Shown: positions 7,768 to 38,280 of the stretch, piece by piece | Numbering within the stretch: position 1 is the stretch's first letter | Layout of the letters: each line of letters starts with the position of its first letter | From: Candidatus Kaiserbacteria bacterium | Lineage (GTDB): Bacteria > Patescibacteriota > Minisyncoccia > Phycocordibacterales > UBA2100 | Assembly (NCBI GenBank): GCA_016186765.1 | Contig: JACPLD010000003.1 | Span: forward strand, 6,121-70,120 | DNA length: 64,000 nucleotides | Reading direction: 5' to 3' | The notes under the pieces: model-generated | The model's input: only the letters and a program-made list of their open reading frames with translations | Told to the model about the DNA's origin: nothing | The model's database searches: none | Program-made: the position numbers and the translations under genes

Positions 7768-8922
7768 ATGGGTGCAATAGCAACTGAAGATACCAGGCTT
7801 AAAGGAGCAGAAGACAGCGATGCCGACGTGCCCGCCGAAGCGGGAGCGGAGGCAGGAACCTCGGCGAAGGAGGGGCCGATGGCGGAGCTTTTGAATTCCG
7901 TTGGAAAGCCGCCTTTTGTCGACGATGTGGTCGAAGGTCCCGTCGTCGCGGTCGGTCGCGCGCGCGTATTCGTCGACCTTCACCCCTTCGGGACTGGCAT
8001 CATATACGGCCGCGAATACCTTTCTGCGCGTGAAGCCTTGAAGAACGTCAACATCGGCGACACCATCACGGCAAAAGTGATGGGCACTGACAACGAGGAA
8101 GGGTACATCGAGCTTAGCTTGCGCGAGGCTAGACAAGCCCTCATTTGGAACGAAGCCGAAATCGCGATGCAAAAGAAGATTTCCTTCGAGCTTCCTGTCA
8201 CAGAGGCAAATAAAGGTGGACTTATCATTCAGTGGAACGGTTTGCAGGGATTCCTGCCGGCCTCGCAGCTTTCGCCTGCGCACTACCCACGCGTGCCGGA
8301 TGGTGACAAAGACAGGATTTTCGCCGAGCTCAAAAAGCTTGTCGGTACGAAACTTGAGGTGATGATCATTACGGCTTCTCCAAAAGAGAACAAACTCATC
8401 TTCGCGGAGAAAGGCGCAGGCGGAAGCGAGCGCGCGTCGCTCGTGGAAAAGTACCGCGTAGGCGATTGTTTAGAAGGCACCGTGACCGGCGCGACGGAAT
8501 TCGGCGTCTTCGTGAAGCTCGAGGAGGGACTCGAAGGTCTCGTACACATTTCCGAAATGGATTGGGCGCTCGTCGAGAATCCGAAGACACGCTATCGTGT
8601 AGGAGAGGTGGTGAAAGTGAAGGTGATCGAGATCAAGGATGATAAAGTCTCTCTTTCCATCAAGGCCTTGACCGAAGATCCCTGGAAGGCGGCCGCGGTA
8701 AAGTATCACAAAGACGAGAAGGTGGATGCTGTCATCATCAAGTACAACAAGCATGGTGCGCTCGCATCGATAGAGGAAGGTGTTGCGGGCCTCGTGCACA
8801 TTTCCGAGTTCGCCAACGAAGAAGACCTACGCTCTCGCCTCGAGCTTGGCAAGGTCTATCCGTTCACCATCACGTTTTTCGAACCAAAGGATCGTCGAAT
8901 GACTCTCAAACCGGCGGGCTAA
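7768..8922 (+). CDS. rpsA: 30S ribosomal protein S1 (short form, 4 S1 domains)
   Basis: Repeated S1 domains (G..V.G.V.....G.FV.L..G..GL.HISE...). A long 5' leader of about 150 nt precedes it. Confidence 0.8.
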   Translation: MGAIATEDTRLKGAEDSDADVPAEAGAEAGTSAKEGPMAELLNSVGKPPFVDDVVEGPVVAVGRARVFVDLHPFGTGIIYGREYLSAREALKNVNIGDTITAKVMGTDNEEGYIELSLREARQALIWNEAEIAMQKKISFELPVTEANKGGLIIQWNGLQGFLPASQLSPAHYPRVPDGDKDRIFAELKKLVGTKLEVMIITASPKENKLIFAEKGAGGSERASLVEKYRVGDCLEGTVTGATEFGVFVKLEEGLEGLVHISEMDWALVENPKTRYRVGEVVKVKVIEIKDDKVSLSIKALTEDPWKAAAVKYHKDEKVDAVIIKYNKHGALASIEEGVAGLVHISEFANEEDLRSRLELGKVYPFTITFFEPKDRRMTLKPAG

Positions 8923-8939
8923 TCGCGGTCTCAAGATTG

Positions 8940-9715
8940 TTTTTCCACACCCTTGTGTGTCAAGGTGACACCTTGACGCAAGGTTGCCGTATTATCCTGA
9001 GAATGAACAGAGCCCCTTTCGGAAGCGGCGAATGGTATCACTGCTTTGCACGAGGCATCGACAAACGGAGGACATTCGTTGACCGTTCCGACTACAATCG
9101 TTTTTTAGGGCTCCTCTACTTGTGCAACAATACCTCCACTATCCACAGAAGTAATCTCCGTTCCCCGACACTCTTTAACTTACTTTCGATGAATCGCGGG
9201 AAACCCCTCGTCGGAATCGGAGCTTTCTGTCTGATGCCGAACCACTTTCATCTTTTACTGAAAGAAATTACAGATGGCGGTATTTCAGCCTTTATGCAGA
9301 AGCTTGGTACTTCATATGCAATGTACTTCAACATGAGGCGCAACCGTGCCGGAAATCTGTTCACAAAGCCGTTTCGGTCACGGCACATCAGTGATGACCG
9401 ATACCTTCAGCAAGTTCTGCAGTACATTCACTGCAATCCAGCAGAGCTCTTCGAGCCCGGATGGAAAGATGGACGAGTTAAAGACTTATACATACTTCAG
9501 AAGAAACTGCTCATATATCCATATTCAAGTTTTGGCGCTTTCACTGACACAAGCAATGTTCTGGGAAAAATCCTTGACTCGTCGATCTTCGAAATTGAAA
9601 CTCAATTCTCGCCCGGCAAAATGCTCAAGGAAGCTCTCGAATACTATCGCGATGTCAAGGTGACACCTTGACGCACCCTCCTTGACGCACCCTTGACGCA
9701 CGGAGAATCATCTCC
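8940..9715 (+). mobile_element. IS200/IS605-family-like minimal element: tnpA (Y1 HUH transposase) flanked by identical palindromic hairpins in direct orientation
   Basis: The palindrome TCAAGGTGACACCTTGA occurs at 8960-8976 and again at 9655-9671. CCTTGACGCA is repeated three times at 9666-9700. Confidence 0.6.
9003..9671 (+). CDS. tnpA: HUH Y1 transposase, IS200-like / RAYT-like (TnpA)
   Basis: HuH motif NHFHLLL and conserved YIHCNP Tyr region; paralogous to the ORF at 37581-38243. Probable start MNRAPFG at 9003. Confidence 0.65.
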   Translation: MNRAPFGSGEWYHCFARGIDKRRTFVDRSDYNRFLGLLYLCNNTSTIHRSNLRSPTLFNLLSMNRGKPLVGIGAFCLMPNHFHLLLKEITDGGISAFMQKLGTSYAMYFNMRRNRAGNLFTKPFRSRHISDDRYLQQVLQYIHCNPAELFEPGWKDGRVKDLYILQKKLLIYPYSSFGAFTDTSNVLGKILDSSIFEIETQFSPGKMLKEALEYYRDVKVTP

Positions 9716-9942
9716 ATTTGCGGAATGTTAGCGTCGCTTCTGAATCTATATCGTTCATCTGTGAAGCATTTGCCTGTATCAACAAAACCGAGCTTCGCAT
9801 AAAACGCAATTGCATTCTCGTTGAATGTCGCGACGTTCACGATCGTGTCTTTCGACAAATCAAGAAACTTCAGCGCTGCCGCCCAGAAAAACTTCCCGAC
9901 TCCCCTATTCTGGTACTCCGGCAGAACATAATTCGAATCCAT
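9655..9942 (-). pseudogene. GNAT-family N-acetyltransferase fragment (C-terminal half only), abutting the IS right end
   Basis: Acetyl-CoA motif QNRGVGK and the beta4-alpha3 region are present; the N-terminal roughly 70 aa are absent. The C-terminal tail runs into the IS hairpin repeats. Confidence 0.45.
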
Positions 9943-9952
9943 GCATTAATTA

Positions 9953-10543
9953 TTAGTTGAACTGATTCATTGCGCGTTCGCGACCTTCGCGCACGATAGT
10001 TTCGAGTGCATGCGAGACGCGTTTGAAAACAGGCTTCAGTGTGGCAATCTCGTGCGCACGGAACTTTGTGAGTATAAAATTGTTGACGACTTTTTTGCCT
10101 TCCGGCTTCCGCAGAGTGCCCGCAGCCGTTGAAGGAGAGACCCCAATGCGCACGCGAGTAAACTTTTGCGTCTTCAGCGCGCGTATGACCGACTCGAGTC
10201 CCTTGTGTCCGCCGCTTCCCCTGTCGAACGAGAGCTTTATCTTCCCCAAAGGGAGGTCCAAATCGTCGTGGACGACGATCATGCGCTCCACCGCCCTCTG
10301 ATTTTTGACGAAACGTGCAACCGTAGCGCCCGATTTGTTCATAAACGTGTCGGGGAGCACTAAGGCAACCGCGGTTTTTCCTACCATACCGCCTCCGGTG
10401 GTCGCCTTTTTTGCATAATCTCGCTTGAAACCGTTCAGATGCATGGTTTTTCCAAAAAATTCGACTGCCATGCGGCCACAGTTGTGCCGCGTCGAGTCAT
10501 ATTCCTCTCCCGGATTTCCCAAACCGACGATAATCCAAGCCAT
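9953..10543 (-). CDS. pth: peptidyl-tRNA hydrolase
   Basis: Contains GLGNPG, TRHNCG and the HNG region. Confidence 0.9.
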   Translation of the reverse strand: MAWIIVGLGNPGEEYDSTRHNCGRMAVEFFGKTMHLNGFKRDYAKKATTGGGMVGKTAVALVLPDTFMNKSGATVARFVKNQRAVERMIVVHDDLDLPLGKIKLSFDRGSGGHKGLESVIRALKTQKFTRVRIGVSPSTAAGTLRKPEGKKVVNNFILTKFRAHEIATLKPVFKRVSHALETIVREGRERAMNQFN

Positions 10544-26294: not shown

Positions 26295-27071
26295 CTACAC
26301 CTCTTTCTTTTCGAGCTTCGCCATGAGCTCGCGCGCCTCTTGAGGAAATCCTTTCTGTGCGATTTGCGTGCCGCTATACTGCACATCAGCTGTAACATCT
26401 TTTCCGATCCAATCTGGTAAAAAACTGTCATCCGCACGACTGCAAAACAAGGTCTCGTCAGCTTTAGAGTGGAACTCGATTTCTATCCTGACTACCCTCT
26501 CCATCCCCTCTCCGTGATGCACGTCGTAATGAATCTCTACGCTATTCCCATTTGGTAATGTGAGGGGGATATAGTAACGGGTCTTTGCGATCGCGTTCCA
26601 AACTCGAGCATCCCACAAACGATTGAATTCCTCTGTTCTCGGATCATCCTCCGAGAATTTGAGTTGGTATTCGTCTTTTCCCAATTCGCCACCGTCAATC
26701 TTTTTCTTAATCGCGACGCGTAACAACCGACCTTCAGCAGGGTGATCGGTGCGACGCAAGCGGAACGTTCTGTCCGCACCACCTGCCATGTGTGCGAGGA
26801 CGTATGCTTGCTCAATTCCCCGCATGTGCCCGTGCGAAAGAGCCATGCACTCATCCTCACTTAGAAGACGTTTCGGAAGAAATCTGCGTTCGACCTCTGC
26901 TTCCCTCTCTACACCCTCGTCACGGTGGTATACCGCATCGAGAAGAGGTGAATCTTTAATGTAGAGCTTCCGTTCTCTCTCATTCTTGCCTGGGTTTCCT
27001 TCGCGGCGTCCCGTCAGAGATTCCGGCATGCTCCTCATGATACGTGAAAACACTTTCCGGTTGTAGCCCAC
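26295..27071 (-). CDS. CYTH-like (triphosphate tunnel metalloenzyme) domain protein
   Basis: N-terminal EVERRFLPKRL (cf. CYTH EiErKfL) and C-terminal VRIEIEFHS (cf. the ElEiE motif). Confidence 0.35.
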   Translation of the reverse strand: MGYNRKVFSRIMRSMPESLTGRREGNPGKNERERKLYIKDSPLLDAVYHRDEGVEREAEVERRFLPKRLLSEDECMALSHGHMRGIEQAYVLAHMAGGADRTFRLRRTDHPAEGRLLRVAIKKKIDGGELGKDEYQLKFSEDDPRTEEFNRLWDARVWNAIAKTRYYIPLTLPNGNSVEIHYDVHHGEGMERVVRIEIEFHSKADETLFCSRADDSFLPDWIGKDVTADVQYSGTQIAQKGFPQEARELMAKLEKKEV

Positions 27072-27098
27072 CTATTGCATATGCGGTATAACGCTCTC

Positions 27099-28133
27099 AT
27101 GCATATACTCGGCATAGAAACTTCTGCAGATGACACGGGTGTTGCGCTCATCGAGGCCGAAGGAGAGGGGCAAGGTTTTCGGTTCAAGATGCTAGGTAAC
27201 GAGGTTTCATCGCAGGACATTCATAAAGCGTACGGCGGTATTTTCCCCACGATGGCAAAGCGCGAGCATATAAAAAACCTGCCTGCCCTCTTCGATCGAA
27301 TATTAGGGGTTTACGAAACCACTAATATCGATGCTGTCGCTGTCACCGTCGGCCCAGGTCTTGAGCCGTGTTTATGGACCGGCATTACTTTCGCGCAAGA
27401 GCTTTCGGAAAAGTGGAGTGTCCCCATCGTTCCGGTCAACCATATGGAAGGGCACATCCTTATTTCGATGACGGAAAAGGGAAGGCTCGCGAAGTTCGAC
27501 TTCCCTGCACTCGCGCTCCTCATCTCCGGCGGACACACCGAGCTCGTCTTGATGAAAACGTTCGGGCAATACGCATATATCGGTCGCACGCGGGACGACG
27601 CTGTGGGCGAAGCCTTCGACAAAGTCGCACGGCTCTTGGGCCTCTCCTACCCGGGCGGCCCCGAGATTTCCCGCCTCGCGCTCGCAGCTCGAAGCTCGAG
27701 GCTCAAAGCTGACTTCACGCTCCCCCGTCCGATGATACACAGTGACAATTACGACTTCTCATTCGCAGGTCTGAAGACCGCCGTCGAGCGTTATGTGCAA
27801 GCGCATGAACTCCATTCGCTCGACAGAGAAAAGATCGCACGTGAATTCGAAGATGCGGTGACAGATGTGCTCGTCTACAAGACGCTCCACGCCGTCGAAG
27901 AATTTGGTGTGAGCACAGTCATTATGGGTGGCGGCGTCTCCGCCAACAAACATATCAGGAGTGAACTGTCCTCAAAGCTCGAAGCTATGGGCTCGAAGCT
28001 ATTGGTGTGTCCGCCCGAATATTCGACCGACAATGGTCTCATGATCGCGCTTGCAGGATACTTCCACGCGCTGAAAAAAGATTTCATCGATCCTCAAAAT
28101 CTGAAGGCAAACGGGAATCTGAAATTGTGCTAA
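27099..28133 (+). CDS. tsaD: tRNA N6-adenosine threonylcarbamoyltransferase
   Basis: ILGIETSADDTGVAL, HMEGH (metal-binding) and GGGVSAN; Kae1/YgjD family. Confidence 0.85.
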   Translation: MHILGIETSADDTGVALIEAEGEGQGFRFKMLGNEVSSQDIHKAYGGIFPTMAKREHIKNLPALFDRILGVYETTNIDAVAVTVGPGLEPCLWTGITFAQELSEKWSVPIVPVNHMEGHILISMTEKGRLAKFDFPALALLISGGHTELVLMKTFGQYAYIGRTRDDAVGEAFDKVARLLGLSYPGGPEISRLALAARSSRLKADFTLPRPMIHSDNYDFSFAGLKTAVERYVQAHELHSLDREKIAREFEDAVTDVLVYKTLHAVEEFGVSTVIMGGGVSANKHIRSELSSKLEAMGSKLLVCPPEYSTDNGLMIALAGYFHALKKDFIDPQNLKANGNLKLC

Positions 28134-37529: not shown

Positions 37530-38280
37530 TTTACTCCTACATATTAGTGGTTTCGTAAACCACTAATATATACTGGCGATATGGAACTCTACCACGTCCT
37601 AAATAGAGGTGTAGAAAAAAGACTAATTTTTCTAGACGAAGCAGATCGGGCTCGCTTTGTCCACGACCTTTGGGAATTCAACGATACAGAAGATGCGAAA
37701 AATGTATGGTACCGAGTCTCCCAAAATAAGGGTTTACGAAACCACTATATTGAAAAGGAAAGGATTGTAGATCTTCATGGGTGGTGTCTGATGGGGAATC
37801 ACTATCACTTGCTTATATCAGAAAAGCATGACGGAGGGCTTACGAAATTCATTCGTCGGCTCAACGTCGGATACGCCAACTACTTTAACGAACGCTATAG
37901 GCGCCAGGGTACTCTTTTCCAGGGTCGCACGAGGAAAGTTCTAATCAGCACCGACGCGCACTTCTTGCACATACTGAACTACATCCATTGCAACCCGCTC
38001 GATTTCTTAAAAAACGCAGCAGATTGGAGAGAGCACAAGATTGGTAGCGCGGCTTATGCGCTGCGCTATCTCTCTAACTATAGATGGAGCAGCTACCTCG
38101 ATTACTCGGGAGTCCGGAATTTCCCTTCGGTATTGACTACAGAGCTGTTTTCCGATGTTTTCAAGGACTACAAAAAGGAAATTTCTTCTTTTCTGCTTAC
38201 AAACGAAACAAAAAGGCTGAACGGTTATCAACTCGAATATTAGTGGTTTACGAAACCATTAATATCTGTCGGAAAAAGAG
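37530..38280 (+). mobile_element. second IS200/IS605-family-like minimal element (tnpA flanked by palindromic hairpins ATATTAGTGGTTT-NNN-AAACCACTAATAT)
   Basis: Perfect 13-bp-stem palindrome at 37541-37569 and a 1-mismatch copy at 38237-38265 (contains the tnpA stop codon). A partial third copy (GGTTTACGAAACCACTATAT) lies inside the ORF at 37731-37750. Confidence 0.6.
37581..38243 (+). CDS. tnpA: HUH Y1 transposase, IS200-like / RAYT-like (TnpA), divergent paralog of the ORF at 9003-9671
   Basis: HuH motif NHYHLLI and YIHCNP; shares LNRG...R.iF.D..DR..F with the first copy. Confidence 0.65.
   Translation: MELYHVLNRGVEKRLIFLDEADRARFVHDLWEFNDTEDAKNVWYRVSQNKGLRNHYIEKERIVDLHGWCLMGNHYHLLISEKHDGGLTKFIRRLNVGYANYFNERYRRQGTLFQGRTRKVLISTDAHFLHILNYIHCNPLDFLKNAADWREHKIGSAAYALRYLSNYRWSSYLDYSGVRNFPSVLTTELFSDVFKDYKKEISSFLLTNETKRLNGYQLEY

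Follow-up and report, generated by a model that had tools for sequence, protein, structure and literature searches.

A palindrome-flanked gene for a RAYT-like Y1 HUH nuclease between the S1 and pth genes of a Kaiserbacteria genome

The stretch of DNA analysed here, called the window, comprises 64,000 nt of contig JACPLD010000003.1 from a Candidatus Kaiserbacteria bacterium, and between its genes for S1 and pth it holds a low-GC block (8925-9953) in which a gene for a Y1 HUH nuclease is set between two copies of one palindrome. This block, whose hairpin-bracketed gene is referred to below as element 1, is read as a module of the REPtron/TIRtron type and not as a classical insertion sequence (IS), a reading to which a probability of about 0.7 is given (REP, repetitive extragenic palindrome; TIR, terminal inverted repeat; RAYT, REP-associated tyrosine transposase). 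A first-pass annotation had taken it for an IS200/IS605 element; the palindromes and the enzyme that it described have held up, whereas the family assignment has not. The features of the block are as follows.

8925-9953, no strand: low-GC block of 1,029 nt, from the S1 stop to the pth stop
8956-8980, + strand: left cognate palindrome, TGTGTCAAGG-TGACA-CCTTGACGCA, with a 10-bp stem that includes one G.T pair; folds as a DNA hairpin
8990-8995, + strand: -10-like hexamer TATTAT, 7 nt before the ATG, supported by column counts across the family
9003-9671, + strand: gene for a 222-aa Y1 HUH nuclease, probably of class 2 (RAYT-like), assigned from profiles, invariant residues, an AlphaFold2 (AF2) model and a fold match
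9653-9675, + strand: right cognate palindrome, equal to the left copy and in direct orientation
9680-9700, + strand: the 3' arm CCTTGACGCA repeated twice more, with the right palindrome on one side and the GNAT remnant on the other
9701-9942, - strand: dead 3' fragment of a GNAT acetyltransferase gene, assigned from C-terminal profile matches, the ends of homologs and a GC content of 0.46

The enzyme and its palindromes

The open reading frame (ORF) at 9003-9671 encodes a protein with the motifs NHFH (within NHFHLLL) and YIHCNP and with the tail YPYSSF. It matches the Pfam family Y1_Tnp with 32 bits against a cut-off of 23, and in the family alignment the two histidines of the HUH motif (H81 and H83), the catalytic tyrosine Y141 and N145 are invariant. 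A structural model, built with AF2 from 29 family members, reached a pLDDT of 91 and a pTM of 0.89, and when it was compared with the Protein Data Bank (PDB) using Foldseek, the best fold match was 4er8_A (E 4.8e-6, TM score 0.68 on the target), the structure of E. coli TnpA-REP in complex with a REP hairpin; the TnpA structures of IS608, ISDra2 and IS200 ranked below it, with E values of about 2e-3. The element-1 protein is thus a Y1 HUH enzyme by profile as well as by fold, as had been proposed from HFHLLL and YIHCNP. A profile search of the PDB by sequence alone also gave TnpA-REP as its best match, but a weak one (E about 0.04). The protein ends in a helical tail of roughly 70 aa.

The class of the enzyme is judged from its motifs. 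Table 1 of Quentin et al. 2018 (PMC6006769) gives IS200-type transposases a length of about 150 aa and the motifs DH[VI]H and Y---Q, and class 2 (RAYT-like) proteins the motif Y---NP; subclass 2.1 is defined there by NH[YF]H, FQ/W[EQ], Y[IV]HLNP, a C-terminal SS tail and a length of about 238 aa. The 222-aa protein of element 1 lacks the IS200 signature in length and in both motifs, and no IS200 transposase model was matched in an NCBIfam scan, where REP_Tyr_transpos was the only match. The subclass 2.1 motif set is found in this protein and in a second Y1 protein of the window, paralog 2 (motifs NHYH and LFQG), in a comparison of motifs alone. The Y1 protein is probably RAYT-like, of class 2, and nearer to TnpA-REP than to the IS200 transposases; the class-2 motifs, the length, the NCBIfam match and the 4ER8 fold together speak against the IS200/IS605 label.

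The palindrome TCAAGGTGACACCTTGA had been placed at 8960-8976 and 9655-9671 in direct orientation, and both sites were recovered on the + strand as part of a longer, exact 23-nt direct repeat, TGTCAAGGTGACACCTTGACGCA, which occupies 8958-8980 and 9653-9675 with a spacing of 695 nt. This repeat contains a 19-nt palindrome with a central A, and it is this base that allows the copies to be called direct. Both are predicted to fold as DNA hairpins, and no further site of TCAAGGTGACACCTTGA was detected in the 64 kb when up to three mismatches were allowed (0.12 expected). The left palindrome is centred 35 nt 5' of the Y1 ATG, and the right one holds the last five codons of the gene (VKVTP) together with its TGA stop (9669-9671), the hairpin-gene-hairpin unit being compact at about 720 bp. 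The arm sequence CCTTGACGCA forms the 3' arm of the left (8971-8980) and right (9666-9675) hairpins and recurs at 9680-9689 and 9691-9700; of the three extra repeats announced for the right end, the existence of extra copies stands and the number does not, two lying beyond the hairpin. These two copies (9680-9700) share a lineage-specific GACGCA foot with both palindromes. An Rfam scan of 8700-10100 gave no match, and a scan for consensus promoters and terminators found nothing useful 5' of the Y1 ORF and did not call the palindromes terminators.

Hairpins at fixed positions across a Patescibacteria-wide family

The Y1 family is very large in Patescibacteria, with 2,023 database proteins, nearly all of 215-230 aa, and at least 535 loci in species-representative genomes. 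For the palindrome survey, 110 nt around the start codon were compared with 150 nt around the stop codon at 77 homologous loci, matching repeats being accepted at a score of at least 15 and set against 385 position-shifted controls. A matching repeat was present at both gene ends in 67 of the 77 loci and in 1 of the 385 controls, which bears out the expectation that the palindromes would recur at the predicted ends of homologs. The left copy has its centre at a median of -35.5 nt from the ATG (interquartile range -42 to -29) and the right copy at +10.5 nt from the stop, with half of the right copies overlapping the stop codon; the C-terminal peptide K[VA][TS]P that is common in the family is, in fact, translated hairpin. 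All 77 upstream hairpins are distinct in sequence (median 11 paired positions), and since they vary between loci yet match within a locus, the ends co-vary with the gene. AGG-N3-7-CCT is found at the top of the stem in 43 of the 77, and judged by the loop, the copies are direct in 33 of the 67 loci, inverted in 28 and undetermined in 6.

The same behaviour can be followed at short range in seven loci with Y1 proteins 61-69% identical, six of them at the junction of S1 and pth and one (L217) with other neighbours. The stem ATGTCAAGG..CCTTGACAT is retained in all seven, the inner stem pairs change compensatorily (TG..CA, GC..GC, AT..AT), and each change appears in both copies of a given genome. 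Relative to the left copy, the right one is direct in two of these genomes and inverted in five. By analogy with characterised systems, the flanking palindromes are most probably the sites recognised by the Y1 enzyme.

In 21 of 71 family loci, the Y1 ORF itself contains a third cognate palindrome, compared with 4 of 355 controls. Its centre falls ahead of the HUH motif in 18 of the 21, at 158-198 nt from the ATG, and at +454 to +483 in the other 3; examples are L017, L019, L040, L050, L067, L070 and L078 (within L006-L085), as well as paralog 2. Element 1 has no internal copy.

The start of the gene is also conserved. Across 86 loci, columns -12 to -7 read TAtAaT (51-58 of 86 at the strong positions), and about half have TG at -15/-14, giving an extended -10-like TGnTAtAaT. 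A motif resembling a Shine-Dalgarno sequence precedes the gene in only 6 of the 86, and none precedes the ATG of element 1. Because a conserved -10-like hexamer sits at the start and Shine-Dalgarno motifs are rare, the Y1 mRNA is probably leaderless, with the left hairpin lying over the -35 region, as far as sequence conservation can tell. The 3' arm of the palindrome (TTGACA/G) was considered as a -35 box and ruled out, its spacing to the -10-like hexamer being 3-14 nt in orthologs.

Element 1 has no second copy in the window; its sole paralog shares 32% identity with it and is flanked by another palindrome. This second module and its stray copy comprise the following features.

37541-37569, + strand: left palindrome of paralog 2, ATATTAGTGGTTT-CGT-AAACCACTAATAT
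37581-38243, + strand: paralog-2 gene, a 220-aa Y1 protein 32% identical to the first
37727-37747, + strand: internal palindrome of paralog 2, a third copy about 146 nt after the ATG
38237-38265, + strand: right palindrome of paralog 2, with loop ACG, inverted relative to the left and overlapping the TAG stop
27300-27328, + strand: orphan paralog-2 palindrome, in frame inside tsaD (27075-28133)

The flanking palindromes of paralog 2 are 696 nt apart and differ in sequence from those of element 1. With the two flanks, the copy in its own ORF and the copy in tsaD, where it encodes RILGVYETTNID, this palindrome occurs four times in the window. Beside tsaD there is a 258-aa ORF (26295-27071, - strand) with the third-lowest GC content at third codon positions (GC3) in the window, 0.53.

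Spread beyond the window was followed with the 19-mer GTCAAGGTGACACCTTGAC, which was matched exactly in at least 120 metagenome contigs; in about 18 of these a Y1 gene adjoins the match. The matches listed include 117 distinct copies, 77 intergenic, 11 at gene ends and 29 inside ORFs, so that the intergenic and gene-end share among them is 75%, compared with about 85% of the DNA being coding. The palindrome usually extends past its core with complementary bases that are specific to a lineage, and some Y1 genes are bracketed by inverted doublets as in REPINs (L145). Arm duplications near orphan hairpins were observed 9 times against about 3.4 expected, a weak excess. Within a large SMC/AAA-type ORF of L211 there are two CAAGG-type hairpins (2712-2760) whose loops, TCGAA and TTCGA, are inverted. 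The whole-window repeat scan also brought up a dense tandem array at 61988-62351 with periods of 9 nt and 30 nt (GACATCATA / GTCGTAGTAGCC... units), which is probably a repetitive coding region.

The palindromes could instead be plain transcription signals unrelated to the enzyme, with a terminator behind S1 and a terminator or attenuator behind the Y1 gene, and their identity at the two ends would then have arisen by chance or by local duplication. The positions after S1 and between convergent genes would fit this, REPs act elsewhere as terminators and mRNA stabilisers (background in PMC3733652), and the corresponding site in L218 and L219, where element 1 is missing, carries another strong hairpin. 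The explanation is nonetheless very improbable: there is no T-run and the terminator scan made no call, each paralog has its own sequence at both ends (67 of the 77 loci), about 30% of the family has a third copy at a fixed position inside the ORF, orphan copies lie within genes, and the two copies change together between orthologs.

For the REPtron/TIRtron-type module, a course of events can be proposed by analogy with TnpA-REP, IS608 TnpA and ISDra2 TnpA. The palindrome would fold into a hairpin once the DNA is single-stranded, and the enzyme would bind its loop and upper stem (the AGG-N5-CCT core). A cut near the foot of the hairpin could then be made by Tyr141, with the metal held by His81, His83 and Asn145, after which the ends could be rejoined. 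Such cutting and rejoining might copy the hairpin elsewhere and might keep the two gene-flanking copies identical. The left copy covers the -35 region of the probable promoter and the right copy overlaps the stop codon, and the two would probably also insulate or regulate the gene.

A further, tentative proposal, given clearly less than an even chance, is that these loci form an undescribed, Patescibacteria-wide RAYT-like branch, with hairpins on the -35 region of a leaderless promoter, often in frame at codons 50-65, and at the stop, whose enzyme would write only few genomic copies, some of them in frame into essential genes such as tsaD. If true, genomes of about 1 Mb would carry a REP/RAYT system reduced to a minimum. 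A literature search of incomplete coverage found no paper linking RAYT/REP systems with Patescibacteria.

The S1/pth locus, its empty sites and the GNAT remnant

S1 and pth are convergent at the Y1 locus, and five other Kaiserbacteria genomes (L086, L088, L214, L215 and L216) have a Y1 ortholog, 61-69% identical, at the same junction and in the same orientation, while homologs of 59% identity or less sit in other gene contexts. In five of the Y1-bearing genomes, pairwise identity averages 60% for Y1 and 61% for the set pth, lepB and hisS. The pairwise correlation of Y1 with housekeeping identity (r = 0.15) is uninformative, the five genomes being about equally distant from one another. A collection of 5.8 billion proteins contains no homolog of the Y1 protein closer than 70% identity; for pth, more than 15 relatives fall at 80-88%.

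In the three nearest sampled relatives, L218, L219 and L220, the S1|pth site has no Y1 gene, no GNAT gene and no such hairpin. The blastn alignment of the window with L218/L219 runs collinearly for 11 kb at 75-80%, interrupted exactly at 8924 | 9954. A neighbour-joining tree of S1, pth, lepB and hisS reads (L220,((L218,L219),W)), where W is the window genome and the Y1-bearing genomes fall outside. The empty sites are unlike one another, with a 144-nt spacer and an unrelated hairpin in L218/L219 and overlapping genes in L220, which fits two separate deletions. The spacer in question (L218 5592-5735, and L219) contains a 120-nt GC-rich long hairpin with a minimum free energy of -89 kcal/mol as RNA, and the spacer in L218 had no Rfam match. 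Since the block is missing as a whole from the three nearest relatives, it is a unit that has been gained or lost as one piece over long time scales. A comparison of syntenic loci, as suggested in the first-pass annotation, has yielded a divided answer: the block is indeed absent from the nearest relatives, yet the same junction is occupied in five other genomes, which speaks against a recent IS.

Between the extra arm copies and pth, the window carries an ORF of 95 aa (9655-9942, - strand) that had been described as the C-terminal half of a GCN5-related N-acetyltransferase (GNAT), and this proved right: only positions 66-116 of the 116 of Acetyltransf_1 are matched, and the Pfam and NCBIfam matches are all to C-terminal halves, so that the complete GNAT fold of about 150-180 aa with its N-terminal half is not present. 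As recorded, the closest relatives are 83-94 aa long; the DNA 5' of them, however, stays in frame across a stop (TAA in L210, TGA in L211-L213) and codes for the missing half, about 80 additional N-terminal residues, for a family length of about 175 aa. The window copy begins at the equivalent of residue 80, and upstream of it there is only pth, whose ORF (9953-10543, - strand) ends 10 nt from the start of the GNAT ORF; the claim that no room is left for the missing half is correct. At its other end, the ORF has lost its native stop, as the remark that its tail runs into the element implied: homologs end in MEMILK, and here MEMILR, the native end, joins directly onto the arm repeats near 9700, through which the called ORF runs on.

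The ORF is a dead, truncated remnant and is extra DNA just outside the right hairpin. It is missing at the orthologous loci that reach pth (L086, L088, L215 and L216), where 6-46 nt separate the stop codons of Y1 and pth. The earlier view of a gene remnant tied to the insertion can be kept as to the remnant; the truncation was not caused by the Y1 insertion, because what is missing is the N-terminal, pth-proximal half while Y1 abuts the C-terminal end. The fragment came either as donor DNA with the block, or by a GNAT insertion beside the hairpin that was followed by loss of the 5' half. No Y1 gene or hairpin adjoins the GNAT genes of L210-L213, and a source of the fragment was not found there. 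These relatives (L210 3728-4279, L211 2-514, L212 and L213) are themselves full-length genes broken by in-frame stops at differing positions, and from their sequences the GNAT lineage appears to be decaying repeatedly.

Several observations weigh against a REPtron/TIRtron-type module. The score of the REP_Tyr_transpos match, 42 bits, is below the cut-off of 80; the feet of the palindromes read (A)TGTCAAGG, ACTGTCAAGG and similar, so that the GT[AG]G tag is absent from the 5' foot; and the element-1 palindrome has just its two flanking copies in 64 kb, in which no REP-style proliferation is shown. S1 abuts pth in the three nearest relatives (pth 87, 87 and 80% identical for L218, L219 and L220), and ancestral presence of the block would require two losses or, alternatively, one loss and one regain at the same site. 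Base composition adds to this. The GC content of the block is 0.44-0.47 compared with 0.52-0.59 in its flanks, and by GC3 the two Y1 paralogs rank lowest among the window's 58 ORFs; Y1 GC3 also lies 0.1-0.28 under that of its neighbours in all hosts examined (L086, L088, L215 and L216). This outlier status in GC and GC3 is not what long vertical residence predicts, and it contrasts with the host-like divergence of the protein at a shared site.

An alternative reading is an autonomous, still mobile IS200-like IS that entered S1|pth in the lineage of the window, either because it strongly prefers this site or through recombination with a relative in which it was already there, and that brought the GNAT fragment along as donor DNA. 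In its favour are the absence of the block from the three nearest relatives with clean collinearity to both borders, the low GC shared by Y1 and the GNAT fragment (0.46 for both, against 0.55) together with the GC3 of the paralogs, the compact unit of about 720 bp with hairpin ends and a promoter-like -10 of its own, the direct orientation of the element-1 hairpins, which resembles the left and right ends of IS608, and the other gene contexts in which distant homologs (up to 59% identity) are found. It is nevertheless judged unlikely. There is no second copy within 64 kb, and with the closest homolog at 70% where pth has relatives at 80-88%, no recent donor is visible. In five more distant genomes the gene occupies this junction in the same orientation and has diverged much as the hosts have; the IS200 transposase signature is missing and the protein is closest to TnpA-REP; and the right hairpin is often inverted in orthologs, unlike IS200/IS605 ends. 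The REPtron/TIRtron-type module is retained as the preferred reading.

Comparison with known systems

What RAYT enzymes and their palindromes do for the cell has yet to be settled in the field. The Y1 family, with more than 2,000 proteins and at least 535 species genomes, presents the arrangement in a minimal form, two to four hairpin copies at fixed positions of the gene, and its hosts have the smallest free-standing bacterial genomes; this form makes it tractable to study the specificity of binding and cleavage, the maintenance of identical ends and the regulation of the gene by its hairpins. There is also a consequence for annotation: such Y1 genes are labelled "transposase" and resemble IS insertions, whereas at S1|pth both their position and their divergence match those of the housekeeping neighbours in five genomes.

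A REPtron is a RAYT/TnpA-REP gene flanked by REP palindromes, of the type of E. coli yafM (Nunvar 2010, PMC2817692). The present module agrees with it in the Y1 HUH enzyme with Y---NP and the best fold match to 4ER8, in the cognate palindromes that flank the gene, in having one gene copy per palindrome type, with divergent paralogs in a genome each having a palindrome of its own, in the orphan palindromes that are mostly extragenic and sometimes in frame within genes, and in its patchy presence among relatives. It differs in that the protein, of 222 aa with a helical tail of roughly 70 aa, scores under the NCBIfam RAYT cut-off, the palindromes are without the GT[AG]G tag, that of element 1 is limited to two flanking copies in 64 kb, and the palindromes keep fixed distances, over the -35 region of a probably leaderless promoter and on the stop codon.

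TIRtrons, with their TIRYT enzymes (Di Nocera 2013, PMC3733652), have been equated with TnpAY1 subclass 2.1 (Bertels group 1). The likeness extends to the protein (NH[YF]H, FQ, Y[IV]H.NP, the SS tail and a length of about 220-240 aa) and to the layout, in which a single pair of repeats brackets the gene at similar distances, with few or no other genome copies, the repeats being sometimes self-complementary and sometimes overlapping the gene ends. The single terminal repeat pair at the gene borders and the scarcity of other copies, by which TIRtrons are recognised, are both found for element 1. In contrast to TIRtrons, the repeats here are true hairpins, with AGG-N3-7-CCT at the stem top in 43 of 77 loci, the GGGGWSAS motif of TIRs is not evident in the recovered palindromes, and the element-1 repeats are in direct orientation. 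Quentin et al. reported no REP-like structures beside subclass 2.1 genes (PMC6006769), and the papers covered by the literature search describe no members from Patescibacteria. REP copies inside the tnpA-REP gene are a feature of TnpAY1 subclass 2.4, which is matched by the in-frame internal copy in about 30% of the family, including paralog 2; the internal copy lies here before the HUH motif (codons 50-65), and element 1 is without one.

With the IS200/IS605 family (IS200, IS608, ISDra2), the module has in common the HUH/Y1 fold, a hairpin close to each end, both on one strand, a compact size of about 0.7 kb, as in IS200, and an indel relative to the nearest relatives. It differs from that family in having neither the DH[VI]H / Y---Q signature nor a match to an IS200 model, in having no tnpB and no multiple near-identical copies in the 64-kb window, in occupying the same locus in five diverged genomes and in hairpins whose orientation flips between orthologs. 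As the IS200/IS605 signature fails, and the GTAG tag and a high copy number in the window are absent as well, the module is not filed as a member of either the IS200/IS605 or the REP families; its place is beside the REPtrons and TIRtrons.

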